A DNA stretch of 64,000 bases from a virus (taxonomy: Duplodnaviria; Heunggongvirae; Uroviricota; Caudoviricetes). This document shows, in pieces, positions 27,333 through 61,912 of this stretch (its first letter is position 1; each line of letters opens with the position of its first letter). The notes below the pieces were generated by a model that was given only the letters and a program-made list of their open reading frames with translations, ran no database searches and was not told the origin of the DNA. Location of the stretch: the IMG/VR virus record IMGVR_UViG_3300048574_000421, one strand, 5' to 3'. The position numbers and the translations under genes are program-made.

Positions 27333-27414
27333 TAGGAACGGCGGGATTTGAACCCACATTTACAACATACCAGTTACGATTATCCACCTTATAAGAGTGG
27401 CTCGGTACATTCCT
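27333..27414 (-). tRNA. non-canonical tRNA-Ile(UAU)-like RNA (relocated D-arm)
   Basis: AGGAATG/CGTTCCT-A acceptor; CCACT-CTTATAA-GGTGG; GTGGG-TTCAAAT-CCCGC; D-loop-like AACTGGT lies after the anticodon arm. Confidence 0.7.
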
Positions 27415-30055: not shown

Positions 30056-31099
30056 TTATAATAATCTATTAGTTTTGATTATTTTGTAAAGAATTTCGAC
30101 AAATTCTGTATCAAATTCAATAGATCTTCCTTCAAATAAAACTTGTAAAGCAAATTCTATACTTTGTGCTTTTCTATAGGGTCTGTTTGAGACTAAAGAA
30201 TCGAATGTGTCAGCAACAGCAAGAATTCTTGCACCTGTAGGTATTGCTTTTTCTTTTAGTTTATGCGGATAACCTTTTCCATTCCATCTTTCATGATGAT
30301 GTAAAACATAGTCGCTGATCTTACCTACATTATCGACAGGTTTAATTATTTTATAAGACAGTTCAGAGTGTTTTTTGATTAATTCGTATTCTTCATCTGT
30401 AAGTTTGTCTTTTTTAAAAAGAATCTCGTCTTTAACACCAATTTTGCCTATATCATGTAAACGTCCAGCTATAGCAACGTCTTCAATAAATGCTTCATCA
30501 TCAGTGTATTCTAAACAAATTTTCTCAGAAAGTTCGCCGACTTTTTCAGAATGATTTTTTGTATACTCATCTCTTTGTTCTAAAGCATTTGTTAAAGAAG
30601 TAAGCGTATTGAAAAAAATCTTATCTCTTTCTTTTTGAATTACAACAATTTTTGCTCTTAAATTCTCAGCTAAATGTGAATTTCTTCTTAAATTTTTTGT
30701 GTTTCTAGAAGCTTGTAACAATAATAAACCCAATGTTGTTAATTGAAAAGGTTTATTTAAGAATGCATATATATTCTTTTTTATAATTGTTGTGATAAAT
30801 TCATCTGTATTAAAACCTGTCATTAAAATAATAGTAAGCTCTGGATCGATTTTATTAGCTTCATCTACAAAATCAAAACCTGTACACCCATCATCAAGAA
30901 AAATGTCGCAAATAACTACATCAAACTGGTGACTTTCTACAAGGTTTATAGCTTTAGTTAGATTTTCAGCTGTAAAACAATATCCACCATGATTTTCTAT
31001 AAAAGTTTTAAGAAGATCAAGTTGTATATTATCATCATCAACAACAAGAACTGTCAAGTTCATTAAAATAGATGTGTGTTGTATATCTATAATGTTCAT
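30056..31099 (-). CDS. response regulator receiver + HD-GYP phosphodiesterase (RpfG-like)
   Basis: REC 'VLVVDDD...D...IILMTG...KPF'; 'YT..HS..V...LHDIGKIG...HHHERWNGKGYP...ARILAVADTFD...RPYR'. Confidence 0.9.
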   Translation of the reverse strand: MNIIDIQHTSILMNLTVLVVDDDNIQLDLLKTFIENHGGYCFTAENLTKAINLVESHQFDVVICDIFLDDGCTGFDFVDEANKIDPELTIILMTGFNTDEFITTIIKKNIYAFLNKPFQLTTLGLLLLQASRNTKNLRRNSHLAENLRAKIVVIQKERDKIFFNTLTSLTNALEQRDEYTKNHSEKVGELSEKICLEYTDDEAFIEDVAIAGRLHDIGKIGVKDEILFKKDKLTDEEYELIKKHSELSYKIIKPVDNVGKISDYVLHHHERWNGKGYPHKLKEKAIPTGARILAVADTFDSLVSNRPYRKAQSIEFALQVLFEGRSIEFDTEFVEILYKIIKTNRLL

Positions 31100-31247
31100 T
31101 ATTTTACCTTTAAACTTGACAATGCATATTGAATCAAAATACACTTATACCCTTGTTTATATTATACCAACGCGTATTAAAAATAATGACAACAAAAAAA
31201 ATTTTTAAAAAAAATATCACTTTTGCTAACTTTGATATATATTTCTC

Positions 31248-31393
31248 TAGAACAATGCTCTTTTAACAGTGATTGCTTACATTACTTTATAGCTCAGTTG
31301 GTTAGAGCGACCGCCTTAAAAGCAGTAAGTCTCAGGTTCGAATCCTGAAAAAGTAGCCAAAATCTAGCATTTACAACTCAGAGTATTGTTCTA
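31248..31393 (+). ncRNA. Y-RNA-like unit 1 (encloses a complete tRNA-like module at 31283-31359, anticodon UAA, GCCA end)
   Basis: 14-bp terminal stem TAGAACAATGCTCT/AGAGTATTGTTCTA; scaffold motifs TTTAAC, GCTTACAT, AGCA, AACTC. Confidence 0.7.
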
Positions 31394-31415
31394 ATTTTAA
31401 TAACATGAAAATTAT

Positions 31416-31568
31416 TAAAACTGCTCTTTAACAACAGGTGCTTACACATGGTTTAAGTTAGTCCGAAAGACTAATGAAGACGTTCGAATCGTCTATTCCC
31501 CGTTAAGGAAATTTAAGTTTCTTTAACGGGGAATAAAAAGTTCAGCACGTGAAACTCGAGCAGTTTTA
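31416..31568 (+). ncRNA. Y-RNA-like unit 2 (D-loop, hairpin, T-arm, long closed stem)
   Basis: Terminal stem TAAAACTGCTC/GAGCAGTTTTA; same scaffold motifs; AGACG-TTCGAAT-CGTCT T-arm. Confidence 0.65.
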
Positions 31569-31582
31569 TTTTTTGAAATAAT

Positions 31583-31713
31583 CAAGTGTTCTTTAACTTT
31601 AAATGCTTACATGCTTTTTAGCTCAATGGTCGAGCAATTATTTGGGTATAATGGGTTCTTGGTTCAAGTCCAAGGGAAGCGACAAAAAATAGCATTTTGA
31701 ACTCGAACACTTG
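31583..31713 (+). ncRNA. Y-RNA-like unit 3 (degenerate tRNA-like module, Pro(UGG)-like loop)
   Basis: Terminal stem CAAGTGTTC/GAACACTTG; GCTC/GAGC D-arm; CTTGG-TTCAAGT-CCAAG T-arm. Confidence 0.65.
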
Positions 31714-31730
31714 TTTTTTATAAAGGAAAT

Positions 31731-31881
31731 AAAGTCGTGTCTTTTAACGCTGAAAGCATACATTTTTTTCGTCAGTTCAAATCTGACTATCTCCTCGGTG
31801 AGGGGATATGGCCGAGCGGTTTAAGGCAACCAACTGCTAATTGGAACACAAAAATAGCTCTCAAAACTCAGACATGACTTT
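31731..31881 (+). ncRNA. Y-RNA-like unit 4 (circularly permuted tRNA-Ser(GCU)-like module)
   Basis: Terminal stem AAAGTCGTGTCT/AGACATGACTTT; order is T-arm, loop-closed acceptor, D-arm, anticodon arm. Confidence 0.7.
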
Positions 31882-31907
31882 TTAGTTAAATAGTTTGGTG
31901 GTAAGTT

Positions 31908-31940
31908 AAAGGGGCTCAGTTAAAGAGCCCCTTTTTGTTT
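31908..31940 (+). terminator. intrinsic terminator after the ncRNA cluster
   Basis: AAAGGGGCTC-agttaaa-GAGCCCCTTTTTGTTT. Confidence 0.85.
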
Positions 31941-32011
31941 AAATTTTATTTTGTATCTTGTAATTAAAAAACTATAGAAATAAAACATAATTCTAATGAA
32001 AGGAATGAACT

Positions 32012-32266
32012 ATGTCAATTATCCATGTAGCATACGGTGGAAGAAATGAAGATCTTGAGTTTGACGATGTATTTCGTGAAGACAGACTTCATTCTCTGGG
32101 TATGACGACAAAACCTTTGTCACAATCAACAAATCCCGAAACAGTGAAGCGTGCACTTGCAATTCACTATGATGTAAGTTATGACGAGTTTGACTCGCAT
32201 TTTGTTGAAGTCAATCCAAACGGGAACATTACAGTACGTCCCAATGCAAAATGGGGAAGAGGCTAA
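32012..32266 (+). CDS. putative ubiquitin-like (beta-grasp) small protein
   Basis: 84 aa; N-terminal beta-hairpin, helix, C-terminal strand 'GNITVRPNAKWGRG' ending in Gly; in an operon with JAB and ThiF. Confidence 0.6.
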   Translation: MSIIHVAYGGRNEDLEFDDVFREDRLHSLGMTTKPLSQSTNPETVKRALAIHYDVSYDEFDSHFVEVNPNGNITVRPNAKWGRG

Positions 32267-32267
32267 A

Positions 32268-33818
32268 ATGGCAACAACACAAAAAACAGAAGAAGATGTA
32301 CGTGTTAAAATCTTGAATTCGTTTATGACATGTCCTCATAGAGACACAAACGAATTAAAGGTTATACATGCTGAAATGAGAGAAAAAGATCCTGTTTTTT
32401 ACGCACATCTTGCTGCATGGTATAAAAAGAATGGTGAACTTCGTGATCATAACGAAGTTTTTACTGCAATGCTTTTAACAGATCCTTATTTACAGAACCG
32501 TGAAACAGGTATTGCTCTTTTTCAACAGCAAGCTCCCTTTATGAAAGCAAAAATTATTGGTTTCATAAAAGGTAAAAAAATTATTCTAAGAGAGAAAACA
32601 GGTAAGAAAACTCAACGAGGAAAGAAACTCGTCGATGACATTAAAAACACTGAGAAAAAAGTAGGTCTTGAAAAATCAATTCCAGGTCTTTTGAAAACAG
32701 AGATCACAAAATATCTCAGATGGCTTGAAGCTGATAATGAACGTTTTGATACTGTCGCCTTGAAAAATTTTAAAGAGTTAAAATCTCTTTATGCAGGAAA
32801 GGGCACACAAGTAAAACCAAGTCCAAGAGCGCAAGCTATTCTTTTTGATGAAAAAATTCCTGAAGATAGTAAGCTTTCTGTTTTCAAAAAAATAACTAAT
32901 GCAAAGACTCCTGAAGAGGCTGCACTTCTTATTGTTGAAAATAAAATACCTTACACTATCGCGATAGGTTTAATTGAAAAAATTACGCCTTCAATTCTTA
33001 TTGCTTTAGTTAATAGTATGTCATCACAGGAAATTATTAACAACATTGCATCTTTACAAGAAAAAGGAGCAATGGACAATCCTGGTCTGAAGAAACTCAT
33101 CACAGATAAACTTGAGACAGCAAAAACTGCAAAAAATGTTACAGCTCTAAAATCAAAAAGAGCAAAAGCAACAGGAAGAGTTACTGATGAAGCTGTTGTA
33201 AAACAACTCGACGAAATTGCTGACAAACAAATTAAAAAATCAGGAACAATTAAAAGTTCTACAGCAATTCTTGTCGATAAATCAGGTTCTTTAGCTGTCG
33301 CAATTGAAGCAGGAAAACAAATTGCAGCTGCAATTTCAGGTACAATGGAAGCTGATCTTCATGTTATTGCTTATGATACTATTGCTAGATCTATTAAAGC
33401 AAAAGATAATACTCTTACAGCATGGGAAGAAGCATTTAAACCAATTAAGTCTGATGGAGGAACATCAGCAGGTTGTGCCCTTGAATTTATGTTGAGATAT
33501 AAATTGTTTGCTGAACAACTTATTATTGTCACTGATGAAGAAGACAGACATACTCCAAAGTTCTACGACATTTTTCCGAAATATGTTGAAGAAATGAAAG
33601 TTACTCCACATATTGTTATCGTCAGAGTTGGTAATGTTAATCCTATTTTAAGTACTGAACTTAAAGCAAAAGGAATTGCTTTCGATATTCATGAGCCTAA
33701 AGGAAGTGATTACTATGGAATTCCAGGACTTATTCCTTTGATTTCAAGAAAATCAAAACTTGACTTGGTTTATGAAATTATGGACTTTCCATTACCAAAA
33801 AGAAAGTCATATGTCTGA
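32268..33818 (+). CDS. TROVE/Ro60-like helical domain + vWA protein
   Basis: 'DPVFYAHLAAWY...RDH' Ro-like N-terminus; vWA MIDAS 'LVDKSGS', 'GGTS', 'IVTDE'; start at the ATG at 32268, right after the Ubl stop. Confidence 0.65.
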   Translation: MATTQKTEEDVRVKILNSFMTCPHRDTNELKVIHAEMREKDPVFYAHLAAWYKKNGELRDHNEVFTAMLLTDPYLQNRETGIALFQQQAPFMKAKIIGFIKGKKIILREKTGKKTQRGKKLVDDIKNTEKKVGLEKSIPGLLKTEITKYLRWLEADNERFDTVALKNFKELKSLYAGKGTQVKPSPRAQAILFDEKIPEDSKLSVFKKITNAKTPEEAALLIVENKIPYTIAIGLIEKITPSILIALVNSMSSQEIINNIASLQEKGAMDNPGLKKLITDKLETAKTAKNVTALKSKRAKATGRVTDEAVVKQLDEIADKQIKKSGTIKSSTAILVDKSGSLAVAIEAGKQIAAAISGTMEADLHVIAYDTIARSIKAKDNTLTAWEEAFKPIKSDGGTSAGCALEFMLRYKLFAEQLIIVTDEEDRHTPKFYDIFPKYVEEMKVTPHIVIVRVGNVNPILSTELKAKGIAFDIHEPKGSDYYGIPGLIPLISRKSKLDLVYEIMDFPLPKRKSYV

Positions 33819-34656
33819 TGTTTTAAATCTAATCAAACAAATGGGAGAGAAAGAAGCAGCAATGAGCAATTTTATCTCTCCCGTTTTTTTCAATGAATTT
33901 GTTACTACAAAACTTGATGGTGTAGTTTACAAATTCAAAATTTCACAAAAAACTCCTGGTTGGTATAAAGTAAAGCCAATCAACACAAAACAAGCAAAAA
34001 CTGTTTGTAATGCTGAACTTCACGAAATTGATGATTACTTAAAAAGACTTGCAAAAATTCGTTTGATTTTTGTAATGAGAAAAGATAATGTTTTTTTAGC
34101 TATACCTGAAAAAAACAATAATCTAAATCTTCCTATAGATCAATTAATCTCTGTTTTTTTATTTGATGATACTGTTCTTGATTTTGACAAAGTTATTTGT
34201 CGTTTTGATGGTGCAAATTTTTGGTATCATCAAAACGATCCTTCAAGCGATCCTTCAAAATCTATGTATTTGAGAGAGCAATTACATAAAGTAACTGACC
34301 CTAAAAAAATTACTTTTCTGGGTTTAACAACAGAAGAAAAAATTGCTTATACTTTAAGAGTAACTATAGACAAAAGTCTTATTATTGATAGAAAAAAAGA
34401 ATCATTAAAAAATGATGTTGAACATGCAGGTGGTAAATTCATAGATTTTATAGAAAAAAATGATCATTTTAGCGTGACATATACTGTAGATGGTGATTCA
34501 TACACAAGCAATGTAAGTAAAAACGAAACACACAGCGTAATAACAGCAGGAATTTGTTTGTCTGGTGAAGATAGAAAATACGATTTAAAAAGTTTGATTA
34601 CCGTAATGAGAGAGGGTCAACGTGAGCGGAGAATTTATAGAACACATAACGTTTAA
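33811..34656 (+). CDS. conserved hypothetical protein, candidate E2-like (GICLSG)
   Basis: C-terminal 'VITAGICLSGEDRKYDLKSLI'; positioned between the vWA and JAB genes. Confidence 0.45.
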   Translation: MSDVLNLIKQMGEKEAAMSNFISPVFFNEFVTTKLDGVVYKFKISQKTPGWYKVKPINTKQAKTVCNAELHEIDDYLKRLAKIRLIFVMRKDNVFLAIPEKNNNLNLPIDQLISVFLFDDTVLDFDKVICRFDGANFWYHQNDPSSDPSKSMYLREQLHKVTDPKKITFLGLTTEEKIAYTLRVTIDKSLIIDRKKESLKNDVEHAGGKFIDFIEKNDHFSVTYTVDGDSYTSNVSKNETHSVITAGICLSGEDRKYDLKSLITVMREGQRERRIYRTHNV

Positions 34657-35038
34657 AGAACGTTGTTGGATTGTTTATGGTTTTTGGATTGGTCCTTTTG
34701 TCATAGGTAGATTGAAATATCTTTCTGAAGGAGAAACTTGTTCAGTAAATTTTGATTGGCAAAAAGGTCTTTCAAAATATGTTCTTGGCTGGTTTCATAC
34801 ACATCCAGAAAGTGTTTCTCTTAGTCCAAGCAACGAAGATATAAAAACTATGAAATCTTGGGTTAGAACTTTAGAACGACCTTTGATTTGTGGCATCATG
34901 TATGACAATAAAAAACTGAAGAGAGACTTTCTTTGGAGAAATTGTTATTTGTTTAAACGTTGGCCCGATAAAAAAATTTACTATCAACCAATTATGAAAG
35001 ATAAGCTTTTTAAAAACTTCTACATCGGAAAATTATGA
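34622..35038 (+). CDS. JAB/MPN metallo-isopeptidase
   Basis: E near the N-terminus and 'LGWFHTHP......PS.ED' (HxH-x7-S-xx-D) JAMM motif. Confidence 0.8.
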   Translation: MSGEFIEHITFKERCWIVYGFWIGPFVIGRLKYLSEGETCSVNFDWQKGLSKYVLGWFHTHPESVSLSPSNEDIKTMKSWVRTLERPLICGIMYDNKKLKRDFLWRNCYLFKRWPDKKIYYQPIMKDKLFKNFYIGKL

Positions 35039-35670
35039 AAACTTTAAAGCATGAAGAACTTTATAGATCAGCTGATCTAATGACAAAAATGGCAAATCTT
35101 GACATTGTTATGTGTGGAATTGGAGCAATTGGCTCAAATCTTGTCGAGAATCTTGTACGTCAAGGTTTTAAAAAAATCACTGCAATTGATTTTGATAGAA
35201 TTGAAGAACATAACAGACATACACAAATCTGGTATGCTCGAGATGTTGGTCAGTTAAAAGCAACAATGCTTAAAAACAGAATATTCGACATAATGAATAT
35301 TCCTATTGAAGTTGTGCCCAAAAAATTAGAAGAAGCAAATTCAAAAAAAATACTCAACACTCAGGGAGTTGTAATTGATGGATTTGACAATGTTGCAAGT
35401 AGAAAATTTGTTACTGAGTATTGCTCTATATACAAAACAAACTGCTTACATATTGGATTATTTAAAGATTATGCTGAAATAATATGGAATGAAAGATACA
35501 GAGTTCCTGACGATACTAAAAATATAGATGTTTGTGAATATCCTTTAGCGAGAAATATCATTTTATTGGCTGTTGCTGTAGCGACAGAGATATTAATAAC
35601 ATATTTAGAAAAAAAAGAAAAACAGAACTGCATTATAACATTAAAAGATCTGAAAATCACGAGGATATAA
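35035..35670 (+). CDS. ThiF/E1-like adenylyltransferase
   Basis: 'GIGAIGS', 'IDFDRIEEHNRHTQ', K, 'IDGFDN..SR', Cys in 'DVCEYP'. Confidence 0.85.
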   Translation: MKTLKHEELYRSADLMTKMANLDIVMCGIGAIGSNLVENLVRQGFKKITAIDFDRIEEHNRHTQIWYARDVGQLKATMLKNRIFDIMNIPIEVVPKKLEEANSKKILNTQGVVIDGFDNVASRKFVTEYCSIYKTNCLHIGLFKDYAEIIWNERYRVPDDTKNIDVCEYPLARNIILLAVAVATEILITYLEKKEKQNCIITLKDLKITRI

Positions 35671-36161
35671 TGGAAGAACTTTGGTTTACAATGCTTATCG
35701 GTATCCCAGGTTGTGGCAAAAGCACATATATAAGTCTTCAACCAAAATCAAAATTTGGTAGCATCATTTGTCCTGACTCAATAAGACGATCTCTCACAGG
35801 AGATATTTCAGATCAAAGCCAAAATCAACTTGTTTGGCAGATTGCTCAATATACCACGAAATGGGCGCTTATAAATTTGTTGTCTGTTACTGTAGATGCA
35901 GTCAATACTGATACATATTTAAGAAGAGATTTTTTACAAAAACTGAAAAATTCAGGCGTTTATGGAGGATTTAAAAAGCGTGCAATTGTTTTCGAAATAG
36001 ATCCAGATGAAGCAATTAAGCGTGTTGAAAAAAGGTTTAACAGACCTCCTGTACCACCTGAAAGAATCTACAAAATGTACGGAGAGTTTTTATATACAAA
36101 AAAAGTCTTACATGAAGAAGAATGGGATTCTATCCAGTTTATAGGAGAAAAAAATGGCTGA
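35670..36161 (+). CDS. AAA_33 polynucleotide kinase-like P-loop protein
   Basis: 'LIGIPGCGKST...ICPDSIRR...VDAVN...R...R..R..PVP'. Confidence 0.8.
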   Translation: MEELWFTMLIGIPGCGKSTYISLQPKSKFGSIICPDSIRRSLTGDISDQSQNQLVWQIAQYTTKWALINLLSVTVDAVNTDTYLRRDFLQKLKNSGVYGGFKKRAIVFEIDPDEAIKRVEKRFNRPPVPPERIYKMYGEFLYTKKVLHEEEWDSIQFIGEKNG

Positions 36162-37566
36162 AAAACTCTTAAAATCAAGAAAAGTAGCATCACATCAAAA
36201 CGACGGTTTTGTAAAAACTTTAAAACATAAAGTTTTGTTTTGTGGAAATCCTGAAGGCAATAATAACAAGTTCTACTCAATAGAGCTTCAAGTAAATCCC
36301 AAAGACGAACATCGTCTTTTTACTCATTATGGCCGTCTCGGAAAAACAGATGTTTATGAAGTTCGTGATGAATATCTTGGGAAGACTCTTGATTTTACTA
36401 CAGCCGATCGTGAATTCGAAGTTATCCTTGCAAGTAAACTCAAAGGAAAGAAAAAAGAAAGTGAACTTGGAGGAACACGCGAAGAAAAATACGAACTTGT
36501 CGAAACATTCGCTCCGACTGTTGGTTCTGTAAACGTCAGAGGAAAAAACGCTATTATCCAAGTCACAACTATTGCAAAAGACGTAGTTAGTTCATATTCT
36601 GACCCTGAAGTTTCGAGAATCATACGTCAAATCGTCGATGAAAATATACATAATATCTCTTCAATGACTTCTTTGAAACTCACTTCAAACGGATTTGAAA
36701 CACCACTTGGTCCTGTAACTAAAGAGCATGTGCAACGAGCTAGAGAACCTTTAATGGCTCTTAAAAAAATAATGATCAATGACGAAATCAACCCTGATAC
36801 ACAAATAACACGTGATTATAACGCAAAATATTTCTCTTTGATACCTCATTCTTTCGGTCACAAAATAACTCAAGAAGATTGGATTTTAACTGCTGCAAAA
36901 CTTGCTGAAGAACTTGAACTTCTTGACAACCTTGAATCTGCAGTCCAAATGGGTGCTGCTCTACAGAATGCATCAAAACAAAAACAAGCAATTGGTACAG
37001 ACATTGAAGTTCTTACTGATTCGGTAGAGTTCAATAGAATTGCAAAATATATTACAGACTCAAAAGCAGGTAACCATAGAGGTTCTGATGTTTGGAATTG
37101 GAAACCCAAAAACATCTATAAAATCAAAATTCCTACAGAACGTACTCGTTATGAAAAAACCGAAAAACAATTTGGCAACAAACATGAACTTTTTCATGGC
37201 TCAAAAAACAGTAACATTTTAAGTATCCTTAAAGGTGGTCTGATTATTCCCGCAGTAAATGCTGGTTTTGTAACAGGTAGAATGTTTGGTGATGGCCTTT
37301 ATTTTGCAAATAACTCAACAAAATCACTGAATTACTCTACAGGATTTTGGGGAGGCAAAGCAAACAAATACACAAATTCTTTTTTGTTTTTAGCAAATGT
37401 TAACATGGGAAAAACATTTGTTTCTCATGATCCAAGATATTCAGGTGCTCCTCATGGCTATGACTCTATTCATGCTCAAAAAGGAAGATCACTCCATAAC
37501 GATGAATTTATTGTTTTCAAACTACAACAAGCGACTTTAACATATTTGGTCGAAATGTCAAAATAA
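36154..37566 (+). CDS. PARP-like ADP-ribosyltransferase (WGR + regulatory + catalytic domains)
   Basis: WGR 'NNNKFY.I...YGRLG...KLKG..Y'; 'YFSLIPH'; catalytic 'LFHGS...GRMFGDGLYFA...KS.NY...DEFIVF' (H-Y-E). Confidence 0.9.
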   Translation: MAEKLLKSRKVASHQNDGFVKTLKHKVLFCGNPEGNNNKFYSIELQVNPKDEHRLFTHYGRLGKTDVYEVRDEYLGKTLDFTTADREFEVILASKLKGKKKESELGGTREEKYELVETFAPTVGSVNVRGKNAIIQVTTIAKDVVSSYSDPEVSRIIRQIVDENIHNISSMTSLKLTSNGFETPLGPVTKEHVQRAREPLMALKKIMINDEINPDTQITRDYNAKYFSLIPHSFGHKITQEDWILTAAKLAEELELLDNLESAVQMGAALQNASKQKQAIGTDIEVLTDSVEFNRIAKYITDSKAGNHRGSDVWNWKPKNIYKIKIPTERTRYEKTEKQFGNKHELFHGSKNSNILSILKGGLIIPAVNAGFVTGRMFGDGLYFANNSTKSLNYSTGFWGGKANKYTNSFLFLANVNMGKTFVSHDPRYSGAPHGYDSIHAQKGRSLHNDEFIVFKLQQATLTYLVEMSK

Positions 37567-43972: not shown

Positions 43973-44416
43973 ATGTCAGTTAAATTCTATCGACCTAAAG
44001 AACCTTTTGGTGAATTTTCTAACTTTGCATATTTTGAAATAATACTTGATGGTTTTACTTGGAAAACAAATGAACATTATTTTCAAGCGCAAAAATATAT
44101 AAATACAGTACGTTTTGAAATGATAGCAAATGCTAAAACTCCAAGAGAAGCAGCAGACTTAGGAAGAGACAGATCTTTGCCTTTAAGACAAGACTGGGAA
44201 TTAATAAAAGATGACGTAATGAGAAAATGTGTTTTTGAAAAATTCAACACACACTTGCGTCTAAAAGCTCTTCTATTATCTACAGGAACTGAAGAAATAA
44301 TAGAAGACTCTCCTGTAGATTACTATTGGGGTGTAGGTAAAAATGGTACTGGAAAAAATATGCTCGGGAAAATTTTAATGGAAGCTCGAGATAAATTCGA
44401 GAATGATATAAAATAA
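43973..44416 (+). CDS. NADAR (YbiA-like) family hydrolase
   Basis: 'FSNF...W.T.EHYFQAQK...P.EA..LGR...R.DW...M...KF..H..L...LL.TG...E.SP.D.YWG...GKN.LG.ILM..R'. Confidence 0.92.
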   Translation: MSVKFYRPKEPFGEFSNFAYFEIILDGFTWKTNEHYFQAQKYINTVRFEMIANAKTPREAADLGRDRSLPLRQDWELIKDDVMRKCVFEKFNTHLRLKALLLSTGTEEIIEDSPVDYYWGVGKNGTGKNMLGKILMEARDKFENDIK

Positions 44417-48595: not shown

Positions 48596-48607
48596 TTGGA
48601 GAATCTC

Positions 48608-51001
48608 ATGTTTGACTTAAAAGGAAAATATGGTTCAGCTCACGTAATGATTGATTATGTCGAAGAAGCTTGTATGTCGCAAATACTTGGTTTTCTTAAT
48701 CATCCAGTCTTTACTAATCAGATAGCTATAATGCCTGATACACATGCAGGAAAAGGAAGTGTTGTTGGATTTACAATGCCAATGACAGAAAAAATCATTC
48801 CTAATGTAATAGGCGTAGATATAGGATGTTTCATTGACAAAACAGAAGTCCAACTTGCTGATAATAGAAAATTAAATTTTTTAGAATTGATTAAAGAACA
48901 AGAAGAGGGAAAAGAAAATTTTTGTTTCGCTAAAGATCAAACAGGAAATATTGTAATAACAAAAATTTTGTCTGTGTTTTTTACAAAAATAGTTGACAAA
49001 CTTGTGAAGATAGTACTAGATAATGACGAAGTGATATACAGTACTGAAGAACAAATTTTTTTCTTATTAGATAACAACGAAATTCAAGCGCAAAATTTGA
49101 ATATTGAACAATCATTATTTCCTCTTTACCTTAAAAAAGCAAAAGAAGTAGACAATATTTCAAAAAACTCTAAATATCTAAAAGAGACAGAATACTTTGT
49201 AGTTTATAATCCAAACACAAAAAAATACGATTATGTCCATTGTCTTGCTGATGATTATAATACAAGAAGGAAAACTCAAAACAACTTAAAAATATTTGTT
49301 CGACATCATAAAGATTTTAACAAATTCAATAACAACCCAACAAATATTGAAAGGGTCTCTTGGCGCCAACATTGGAAGATTCATTCGCAGCATGCTTCAA
49401 TTCAAAATAAACAAGGAAAATCTGGTTGGAAAGTGTCTTGGACAAGGCACTTAGAAAGATTCAGGAGAATGTCTTCTGAAAAAATGAAAAAATTAAGTCA
49501 AAATCCAGATTTTCAAAAAATTAGAAATAAAGCATCTGCAAAAACCTTTGAAAACTTTTGTAAAACAGAAAAATTTAAAGAACAATCGAAACATGCAGGA
49601 AAAAGAGGTAAAAAATATCTTTGCGCATATAACAAATCAAAAACAGGTATCGAAAAGTCAACAGAAGTAGGAAATCGCGTTTATGAATGTCCAGTTTGTA
49701 ACAAAATCTTAATTGGTCCTTTTGCAGTAAACTCGCATAAGAAAATGCACCCAGATCTTACTTTTCAAGAGTTCAAATTAACCAAAAATCATAAAATAAA
49801 ATCAATCGAAATATTAAATTGTGAACCTACAAAAGTGTACTGTTTAAAAGTTGAAGAACATAGTAATTTTGCATTAGCTGCAGGAGTCTTTGTTCATAAC
49901 TGTGGAATGAGCTCACTTAACATTGGTTCAGCATTACCAATTTCTTATCAAGAACTTGATCATAAGATAAGACAAAGAATTCCTTTTGGGTTTGACACAA
50001 ATGAAAGATCTGTCATTGATTTTGCAAAAGAATTCCCATGGAAAAAGGTAAATGCAACAGCTCAAAATTTTGCTCTTTCTTATCAAAGAAAATTTAATTC
50101 AAGTATTACACTTCCACGCTTTGACTTTAATTGGTTTGAGAAAAAATGCGACATAATTGGTTGTGATCTCGGGAGAGCTATAAAAAGTCTTTGTTCGCTT
50201 GGTGGTGGTAACCATTTTATTGAACTTGGTTTGTCGACAAAAAATGAATATTGGCTTACTATTCACACTGGTTCACGTAACTTAGGAAAATGTATTTGTG
50301 AATATTGGCAAGATATTGCAATCAAAAAACTTAAAAGAGGAAATAAAGAAGATCGTCAATCGCAAATTGAAAAACTTAAAAATACTCTAAAAGGAAAAGA
50401 ACTTTTTGAAGCTATAAAGCAAGTCAAAGAAAAAGAGCCTTTAGTTTTAAACTTTTCTGACGATTTGTGCTACCTTGAAGGACAAGATGCGCAACAGTAT
50501 TTGTTTGACATGATTTTTTCTCAAATTTATGCACAAGTCAATAGACAGTTGATTTCAAAAAAGATCGTAGAAATTTTGAATGTTCCTGTTATTGATTCAA
50601 TAGAAACAGTTCACAATTTTATAGATTTTGAAGATTTCATTATCAGAAAAGGATCAATTCGTTCTTACGAAAACGAGCGTATGATTATTCCTTTTAATAT
50701 GCGTGACGGAATTCTTGTTTGTACAGGAAAATCAAATCCTGAATGGAATTTTTCTGCACCACATGGTGCAGGACGTCTCTTATCAAGATCACAAGCAAAG
50801 AAAAAATTAGATATGAATGAGTTTTCAAAACAAATGTCGGCAATTTTTTCTACATCAGTTAATATGTCAACTCTTGATGAAGCGCCTGATGCTTACAAAA
50901 ACCCAAAAATAATCGAGGAAGCAATCGAGCCTACAGCTTTGATAATTGAAAGATTAGTGCCTGTCATGAACATGAAAGATTCAAAAGGTACTGACGATTA
51001 A
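48608..51001 (+). CDS. rtcB: RtcB RNA ligase, intein-containing
   Basis: MPDTHAG, VDIG|CGM, GGGNHF.E, HTGSR, HN, RKG, SAPHGAGR, DEAP.AYK. Confidence 0.92.
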   Translation: MFDLKGKYGSAHVMIDYVEEACMSQILGFLNHPVFTNQIAIMPDTHAGKGSVVGFTMPMTEKIIPNVIGVDIGCFIDKTEVQLADNRKLNFLELIKEQEEGKENFCFAKDQTGNIVITKILSVFFTKIVDKLVKIVLDNDEVIYSTEEQIFFLLDNNEIQAQNLNIEQSLFPLYLKKAKEVDNISKNSKYLKETEYFVVYNPNTKKYDYVHCLADDYNTRRKTQNNLKIFVRHHKDFNKFNNNPTNIERVSWRQHWKIHSQHASIQNKQGKSGWKVSWTRHLERFRRMSSEKMKKLSQNPDFQKIRNKASAKTFENFCKTEKFKEQSKHAGKRGKKYLCAYNKSKTGIEKSTEVGNRVYECPVCNKILIGPFAVNSHKKMHPDLTFQEFKLTKNHKIKSIEILNCEPTKVYCLKVEEHSNFALAAGVFVHNCGMSSLNIGSALPISYQELDHKIRQRIPFGFDTNERSVIDFAKEFPWKKVNATAQNFALSYQRKFNSSITLPRFDFNWFEKKCDIIGCDLGRAIKSLCSLGGGNHFIELGLSTKNEYWLTIHTGSRNLGKCICEYWQDIAIKKLKRGNKEDRQSQIEKLKNTLKGKELFEAIKQVKEKEPLVLNFSDDLCYLEGQDAQQYLFDMIFSQIYAQVNRQLISKKIVEILNVPVIDSIETVHNFIDFEDFIIRKGSIRSYENERMIIPFNMRDGILVCTGKSNPEWNFSAPHGAGRLLSRSQAKKKLDMNEFSKQMSAIFSTSVNMSTLDEAPDAYKNPKIIEEAIEPTALIIERLVPVMNMKDSKGTDD
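48827..49900 (+). mobile_element. intein (358 aa) with HNH-like endonuclease in RtcB
   Basis: Starts 'CFIDKTEVQLAD', HNH 'VRHHKDFNKFNNNPTNI', ends 'VYCLKVEEHSNFAL.AGVFVHN' before CGM. Confidence 0.92.
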
Positions 51002-61817: not shown

Positions 61818-61836
61818 AAAAACTCCTTGAAAAAAA

Positions 61837-61907
61837 TGCCTCTGCACAGATTCGAACTGTGGTGGGTTGTTTTAGAGACAACTGCTTTACCGCTAAGCTA
61901 CAGAGAC
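61837..61907 (-). tRNA. amber suppressor tRNA (anticodon CUA)
   Basis: GTCTCTG/CAGAGGC-A; GCTT/AAGC D-arm; GTTGT-CTCTAAA-ACAAC; CACAG-TTCGAAT-CTGTG. Confidence 0.88.
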
Positions 61908-61912
61908 ATTTG

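Follow-up and report, generated by a model that had tools for sequence, protein, structure and literature searches.

A 64,000-nt stretch of AT-rich DNA from an uncultured huge phage (the window; part of a 119-kb IMG/VR record) carries on its plus strand, at positions 31248-31881, an array of four tandem small-RNA units upstream of a gene (32268-33818, +) whose product is predicted to be a divergent Ro60 homologue. Each unit is bimodular, with a conserved handle and a swappable cargo that is usually a tRNA body. RNAs of this layout form a structured family with compensatory stems, and the family is tightly linked to genes of the Ro60 fold (TROVE plus vWA) in both phages and bacteria. We estimate at about 70% the probability that the four units are trans-acting partner RNAs of a Ro60-like particle, which would make them functional counterparts of the Y RNAs in a widespread class outside Rfam 15.

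The four units, all on the plus strand, lie between a minus-strand response-regulator/HD gene and the plus-strand operon that includes the Ro60-like gene. Unit 1 (31248-31393; covariance-model score 127.9 bits, E 3e-27), unit 2 (31416-31568; 108 bits), unit 3 (31583-31713; 115.4 bits) and unit 4 (31731-31881; 109.4 bits) measure 146, 153, 131 and 151 nt, in agreement with the original prediction of four units of 131-153 nt built on a shared scaffold. The first half of the handle consists of a terminal stem of 9-14 bp, UUUAAC(N), a second stem of about 8-9 bp that finishes in a G-C and a C-G pair, and UACAY, after which the cargo begins; beyond the cargo follow an A-rich linker, the return strand of the second stem, AACUC and the return strand of the terminal stem. 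The two halves occupy 31248-31282 (stem, UUUAACA, stem 2, UACAU) and 31366-31393 in unit 1, 31416-31447 and 31544-31568 in unit 2, 31583-31612 and 31691-31713 in unit 3, and 31731-31763 and 31856-31881 in unit 4. The signature TTTAAC-N7-GCWTACAY occurs four times in the window, always on the plus strand (31262, 31427, 31592 and 31743, a spacing of 165, 165 and 151 nt), against 0.13 occurrences expected by shuffling, and none of 100 shuffles gave four. The terminal stems are inverted repeats on the plus strand (31248-31261/31380-31393, 31416-31426/31558-31568, 31583-31591/31705-31713 and 31731-31742/31870-31881) that differ in sequence from unit to unit; each pairs with its own partner at 7-8 of 8 positions, the best or equal best value, vs 3-7 of 8 with the 3' strands of the other units.

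A single intrinsic terminator (31908-31934, +, within an element annotated as 31908-31944) closes the array, with the same layout in the closest relative (locus L001) and in L003, and the operon with the TROVE/vWA-type gene follows, as had been foreseen; the distance from the end of the array to the Ro60-like gene is 330 nt. Upstream, a conserved block (31219-31244, +) with a TGn-TATATA extended -10-like element ends about 7 nt 5' of unit 1. Its 26 nt are identical between the window and L001 while the flanks have diverged, and judged by its sequence it may be a promoter; a generic sigma-70 scan gave no match above chance. A blastn search of 31100-34000 against GenBank phages returned short tRNA-like matches only and no relative. 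Sequencing runs were considered as evidence of expression and rejected: runs labelled metatranscriptomic hold contigs of 23-39 kb, that is, they behave as DNA, and one cDNA-labelled run, with two exact 151-nt contigs covering only 31314-31591, was not usable for this purpose. The minus-strand gene on the far side of the array (30056-31144), divergent from it, encodes a fusion of a response-regulator receiver with an HD_5/HD-GYP-type domain and is not conserved in related loci.

Homologues of the Ro60-like protein number in the hundreds, and a 427-kb contig carries identical copies of the window's own. Fourteen IMG/VR loci were examined, taken from contigs of 26-470 kb that encode such a homologue. 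Anchoring by hand on GCNUACAY and RACUY located 35 units of the same layout in 11 of these 14 phage loci. Their terminal-stem 8-mers are distinct in 34 of 35 cases, with an average of 7.3 of 8 positions paired to the unit's own partner vs 3.3 of 8 to foreign partners. A covariance model (R1), built from only eight units (those of the window and of L001), matched 36 units in 13 of the 14 loci at E<=0.002. In the resulting alignment 89.3% of cells are paired, vs 56.8% after shuffling and 30-41% with the partner strand slid; double changes occur in 20 of 21 pairs, and the 267 double-change cells observed against 84 expected were equalled in none of 500 shuffles. These data bear out the compensatory change that had been claimed for the terminal stems. 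In the handle, variation is absent or nearly so at the two GC pairs and UACAY, at the A and Y within the 5' loop, and at ACU within the 3' loop. The internal loop is asymmetric, with YYNAY on the 5' side (UUUAAC in the window) and RACUY on the 3' side (AACUC in the window); a possible resemblance to the UAA/GAN internal-loop motif, with the variants CAA, CGA and UGA, was not adopted as its identity. An exact-pattern scan of IMG/VR (14 specified bases) gave mostly single chance matches, with four together only in the L001 contig, and is not informative on association.

In whole phage records of 424, 131, 467 and 470 kb the significant R1 matches all lie beside the Ro60-like gene, one orphan unit excepted; the window's own record contains its four units and no more, and a 205-kb phage record gave no R1 match at the same threshold. 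The cassette also occurs in bacteria. A 40-45% identical protein is encoded in 505 stretches of bacterial contigs sampled at one genome per species, complete chromosomes among them, with carriers that include Cyanobacteria, Planctomycetota, Chloroflexota and Acidobacteriota. The RNA scan covered the best 79 of these loci, picked by protein alone. R1 gave 144 matches in 58 loci, of which 141 lie upstream and on the strand of the gene, and an independent rule combining a regular expression with pairing found 188 upstream same-strand units vs 1 and 1 elsewhere, at 1-6 units per locus. The bacterial handles have CCUAAC or CCCAAC as their 5' loop; a T-loop motif is present in 114 of 189 bacterial cargoes and a complete tRNA call in 8 of 189. 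The scaffold had been predicted to accompany such operons elsewhere, on pain of abandoning the idea, and that association held in 13 of 14 phage and 58 of 79 bacterial loci with R1. In L143, L187 and other cyanobacterial loci, the units sit inside the operon, between a small ubiquitin-like (Ubl) gene and the Ro60-like gene, rather than ahead of it behind a terminator of their own.

The 516-aa product of the Ro60-like gene escapes family-level annotation: no Pfam family matches at E<=0.01, and the Pfam TROVE signature is not satisfied. A search of PHROGs returned phrog_850, 'RNA-binding protein', at E 1.5e-3, and the best PDB match of the family profile is the Ro60/TROVE protein of Thermus phage phiLo (E 0.038). 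The AlphaFold (AF2) model (pLDDT 83.6) is more telling. Foldseek ranks 1-13 are all Ro60 chains, from phiLo, Xenopus, human and Deinococcus, at E 1e-11 to 8e-9 and TM 0.54-0.64 over 507-581 aligned columns. The modelled protein has the Ro60 fold over its full length, a TROVE-like HEAT-repeat ring followed by a C-terminal vWA domain with a DxSGS motif, in which the MIDAS residues D337, S339, G340 and S341 are invariant. A long Lys-rich beta-hairpin at residues 103-132 (32574-32663), conserved in the family, has the appearance of an insertion in the Ro60 ring and could grip RNA.

The handle is one and the cargoes are several. Unit 1 carries a full cloverleaf (31283-31359, +; Rfam tRNA 58.6 bits) that ends in GCCA and in which ARAGORN places the anticodon UAA at 31317-31319, and unit 3 carries a degenerate cloverleaf (31613-31683, +; 40.6 bits) with a 6-nt anticodon loop. 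In unit 2 (31448-31535, +) a D-loop-like segment (31448-31457), a hairpin (31458-31474) and a T-arm (31479-31493) precede a long closed stem (31494-31535) of about 19 bp, with a folding z of -7.7; the result is a tRNA body whose chain is opened at the 7/8 junction and whose acceptor end is capped. In unit 4 (31771-31844, +) the order is T-arm (31771-31787), a closed acceptor-like hairpin of 9 bp (31788-31808), a Ser-type D-arm (31809-31828) and an anticodon arm (31830-31844) with the anticodon GCU. After in-silico opening of this hairpin and joining of the anticodon arm to the T-arm, 120 of 140 joins were identified as tRNA-Ser(GCU) by ARAGORN; the program made no call with the handle retained as a very long variable arm, and a short join gave tRNA-Ser. 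The cargo of unit 4 is a circularly permuted tRNA-Ser(GCU), and since the re-permuted cargo is called as such, the handle stands where a tRNA-Ser would have its long variable arm. The same handle is thus grafted at three sites of the tRNA body: in units 1 and 3 at the normal ends, in unit 2 at the 7/8 junction, and in unit 4 in the variable arm. These four types are those first described, apart from the closed stem of unit 2, for which 17 bp had been claimed. Compensatory change between the window and L001, whose proteins are 74% identical, preserves cargo helices in units 1, 2 and 4, namely the anticodon stem, the long hairpin and the closed acceptor, respectively. The cargo types that recur among phages are the full cloverleaf with NCCA, an acceptor-less tRNA, the unit-2 type, the unit-4 type and plain hairpins.

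We considered the units as ordinary tRNA genes and rejected this. A free 7-bp acceptor, a 7-nt anticodon loop and a conserved anticodon do not hold across the array, in which only units 1 and 3 form cloverleaves: units 2 and 4 lack a free acceptor end, the loop of unit 3 has 6 nt, and the anticodon of unit 1 drifts, from UAA in the window to AUU in L001, with all three positions changed and the loop frame retained, while a relative of about 93% identity has a 1-nt deletion in that loop. Another alternative is that the units are scaffolded tRNA precursors, whose handle would be a processing and stability cassette (for example, a T7-like RNase III site containing an internal loop, plus an RNase P leader) that releases working tRNAs or fragments and does not dock on a protein. 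Two helices of about 10 bp flanking an asymmetric loop do resemble phage RNase III signals. The two cloverleaves would suit such a role, as would the encoded G-CCA followed by an A-rich linker, with U or C at -1, in unit 1 and several cargoes of its type elsewhere, and the YrlA RNA of M. smegmatis is an RNase P substrate (PMC4201824). We nevertheless regard this explanation as improbable: in half of the cargoes in the window and in the majority of those in bacteria the acceptor end is not free or is missing altogether, complete tRNA calls are rare among the latter, the unit 3 loop is short and anticodons differ between orthologues, and none of the same phage's 12 ordinary tRNAs bears the handle, which is found almost only beside the Ro60-like gene.

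The same drift bears on whether the cargoes serve during infection as decoys for anticodon nucleases of the host, or for other defence toxins that attack tRNA. The genome offers a tRNA-repair context, with an RtcB ligase, a PNK-like kinase and many tRNAs, and a unit 1 anticodon replaced at 3 of 3 positions within an intact loop frame could be read as the mark of an arms race. A decoy should, however, retain the loop that is targeted, and neither the UAA/AUU exchange nor the deletion in the close relative nor the 6-nt loop of unit 3 fits this expectation; many cargoes have no anticodon arm, and at least 505 bacterial genome stretches hold the cassette in a chromosomal setting, which argues against anti-defence as its basic role. 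We judge the decoy explanation to be as unlikely as that of tRNA precursors. The original prediction, of a divergent Y RNA class that presents tRNA decoys or adaptors, therefore divides: the structured family linked to a Ro60-fold gene is supported, and the proposed baits for host anticodon nucleases are not. That hundreds of bacterial species have the same RNA-protein cassette in their chromosomes points instead to a cellular function borrowed by phages.

Comparison with known Y RNAs supports the assignment of the units as partner RNAs and also defines how far they depart from established families. Bacterial and phage Ro60 genes adjoin tRNA-like Y RNAs, several of which are processed from one precursor (PMC4201824; PMC12135203). 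The window's units share with YrlA-type Y RNAs and their Rsr/Ro60 partners, such as those of Salmonella rsr-yrlBA-rtcBA and M. smegmatis YrlA/YrlB, a position beside a Ro60-fold gene, ends paired into a terminal stem, a tRNA-like domain, an RtcB gene in the same genome and, as predicted for the window, multiple RNAs per transcript. Unit 4 follows the YrlA order of T-arm, capped acceptor-like stem and D-arm, while units 1-3 are wired otherwise. In YrlA, the terminal stem contains the motif GNCGAA(N0-1)G on its 5' strand (Chen et al. 2014, PMC4201824). No unit of the window matches GNCGAA(N)G, and cmscan of 31100-32000 against Rfam 15 at E<=10 gave tRNA and noise only, with no Y RNA model and nothing but tRNA at the gathering threshold; a scan of five bacterial loci likewise gave tRNA only. 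This absence of the usual Ro-binding strand had been anticipated. The presumed docking module is instead a handle of two helices, with a UACAY junction and a conserved loop of its own. It joins the tRNA body at three different points, and some cargoes do not resemble tRNA. Arrays contain up to seven units, the partner protein has diverged beyond recognition by Pfam TROVE, and the phage loci co-encode Ubl, E1 and JAB proteins. The units are Y-RNA-like but lie outside the YrlA family by sequence and by model definition. The sole GUCCGA in the array (31461) falls in the first hairpin of the unit 2 cargo (31458-31474), whose loop contains GUCCGAA, the 7-mer found in the conserved strand of metazoan Y RNAs; it is not kept in L001, and since L001 has only CCGAAG there and L003 none, it is probably a chance occurrence.

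Two further systems are instructive. Thermus phage phiLo likewise encodes a Ro60 with partner RNAs, Yrl1 and Yrl2, just upstream (PMC12135203; PDB 9KOP, 9L5Y), and both by structure and by profile the window's protein matches the phiLo Ro60 best, at an identity of only about 15%. The phiLo RNAs, unlike the units described here, are stem-bulge-stem structures with a CGAA motif and have neither a tRNA cargo nor such a shared handle, and no Ubl module has been reported for phiLo. The Deinococcus Rsr-Yrn1-PNPase complex (RYPER) provides the concept of an RNA that tethers the Ro60 ring to an RNA-handling factor through its non-docking module, although the helix of Yrn1, unlike the handle, is similar to metazoan Y RNA. 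The open-access literature yielded work on Y RNAs, phage Ro60 and jumbo-phage TROVE proteins, and nothing on this handle, on such arrays or on a link between Ro60 and Ubl proteins.

Taken together, these comparisons suggest a model in which the array would be transcribed as one RNA, from the 31219-31244 block to the terminator at 31908, and cut in its AU-rich spacers. Each handle would then dock on the Ro60-like/vWA ring, possibly aided by the Lys-rich hairpin or by an OB-fold protein encoded next to it, and the tRNA-shaped cargo, of which the T-arm elbow is the best conserved part, would recruit or sense tRNA-binding factors or damaged tRNAs for the particle. Genes for a Ubl/E1/JAB module accompany those of the particle in the phage loci and in some of the bacterial loci. 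Several observations weigh against this interpretation. The handle contains no GNCGAA and matches no Rfam Y RNA model; because it is without the known Ro-binding sequence, docking on the ring is proposed by analogy only, and the OB-fold neighbour could be the RNA binder in place of the ring. Production of the RNA, its cutting into units and its binding to protein are likewise predicted steps. The second stem of unit 4 is weak, with six pairs and an internal mismatch. The array lies on the opposite strand in L008 and L129, and 21 of the 79 bacterial loci, many of them short-flanked or planctomycete, gave no R1 match. Finally, the orphan unit of the 424-kb relative (L042:3234-3416, -; 58.8 bits, E 2e-12), with a T-arm-first cargo, lies about 220 kb from the Ro60-like gene; units can disperse beyond the cassette.

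The operon downstream of the array has a recurrent composition, and by tblastn the conserved core of the phage loci comprises the array, a mini-Ubl, the Ro60-like protein, an OB/Cys protein, a JAB protein and an E1. The 84-aa product of 32012-32266 (+) is a candidate mini-Ubl on the evidence of its sequence, without a Pfam match and with a conserved (F/W)G followed by a tail of 0-4 residues; such ends resemble precursors that are trimmed by a JAB peptidase. The 281-aa protein of 33811-34656 (+) has an OB fold and a C-terminal domain with an invariant Cys (AGICLSG..D..FDL). Its sequence profile gave no meaningful match in the PDB, and its structure matches OB folds at Z 5-6 and, weakly, UEV/E2-variant proteins at Z 4.8, so that an E2-like carrier is possible on the basis of the model. 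A JAB/JAMM peptidase (34622-35038, +), below the Pfam cut-off and kept in related loci, and a ThiF-type E1 (35035-35670, +; Pfam E 1.3e-26) complete the module. A small Gly-ended Ubl, a ThiF-type E1, a JAB protein and a Cys-bearing carrier candidate in one operon are also features of the Bil and CBASS Cap2/Cap3 operons, from which the window differs in that its E2 candidate is an OB-fold fusion and only weakly UEV-like. To our knowledge, the Bil and CBASS Cap2/Cap3 systems contain neither a Ro60-like protein nor an RNA array.

Sulfur-carrier systems such as TtuB/TtuC or Urm1/Uba4 are also built from a ThiF E1, a JAB protein and a mini-Ubl that ends in Gly and has a trimmed tail. In principle, the RNAs could be substrates, rather than partners, of a Ubl/E1/JAB relay of that kind, with the T-loop or anticodon of the tRNA-like cargo as the site of modification. 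The T-arm is indeed the best-kept cargo element. We consider this very unlikely, as the conserved core showed neither a PP-loop thiolase nor a rhodanese, the conserved Cys protein looks OB/E2-like, and the Ro60-like ring would be left unexplained. Least likely of all is that the conserved 5' loop serves NusB/NusE as an antitermination site of the boxA type or that the array is a cis-acting leader controlling the operon: a terminator does separate the two, an untranslated transcript of 640 nt could need protection from Rho, and unit 2 matches the E. coli rrn boxA consensus at 13 of 13 positions (31422-31434, spanning terminal stem and loop), with two 12/13 matches in L001, but this match is lineage-specific, since units 1, 3 and 4 differ at 3-5 positions, most other phage units at 4-7 of 13 (two in L007 at 2) and bacterial handles have CCUAAC or CCCAAC, cyanobacterial units lie within the operon, and the 3' RACUY, the invariant GC/GC pairs, UACAY and the covarying stems go unaccounted for.

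Beyond the conserved core, the window encodes a PNK-like P-loop protein and a WGR-PARP (35670-37566, +; the PARP at 36154-37566), which are lineage-specific and were detected only in the window and L001 among the flanks examined. About 6 kb from the WGR-PARP gene lies a NADAR-domain protein (43973-44416, +; 5e-37), and the two could form an ADP-ribosylation writer/eraser pair. An 801-aa RtcB RNA ligase with an intein (48596-51001, +; Pfam RtcB 9e-53, Intein_splicing 1e-13) is encoded 15 kb downstream, and its presence in the same genome as the Ro60-like cassette echoes the Salmonella rsr-yrlBA-rtcBA theme. A tRNA-model match of 35.8 bits without an ARAGORN call (27333-27414, -) falls within the block of ordinary tRNAs, and a tRNA with the anticodon CUA (61836-61908, -; an amber suppressor that ARAGORN labels 'Pyl', Rfam tRNA 63.4 bits) may allow the phage to read TAG as sense late in infection.

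The probable identification of the units as partner RNAs of a Ro60-like particle would have consequences for both RNA and protein biology. A portable handle with interchangeable cargoes and three attachment points constitutes a natural variant series for asking what purpose the tRNA mimic of Y RNAs serves. The class also points to a large branch of Ro60-like proteins that has stayed hidden; it spans cyanobacteria, planctomycetes, Chloroflexota and huge phages, and Pfam missed the window's copy. The class further links an RNA-surveillance particle to ubiquitin-like chemistry. A speculative extension, to which we give a low probability, is RNA-addressed protein tagging: the handle would sit on the Ro60-like/vWA ring, the cargo would select tRNA-binding proteins or damaged-tRNA complexes, and the Ubl, E1, Cys carrier and JAB would tag or untag the captured targets. 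Several of the cyanobacteria that bear the cassette are cultured strains, among them Calothrix sp. NIES-4101, Calothrix parasitica NIES-267 and Mastigocoleus testarum BC008, which makes these predictions testable at the bench. If true, the extension would define a Y-RNA-guided ubiquitin-like pathway common to bacteria and huge phages.

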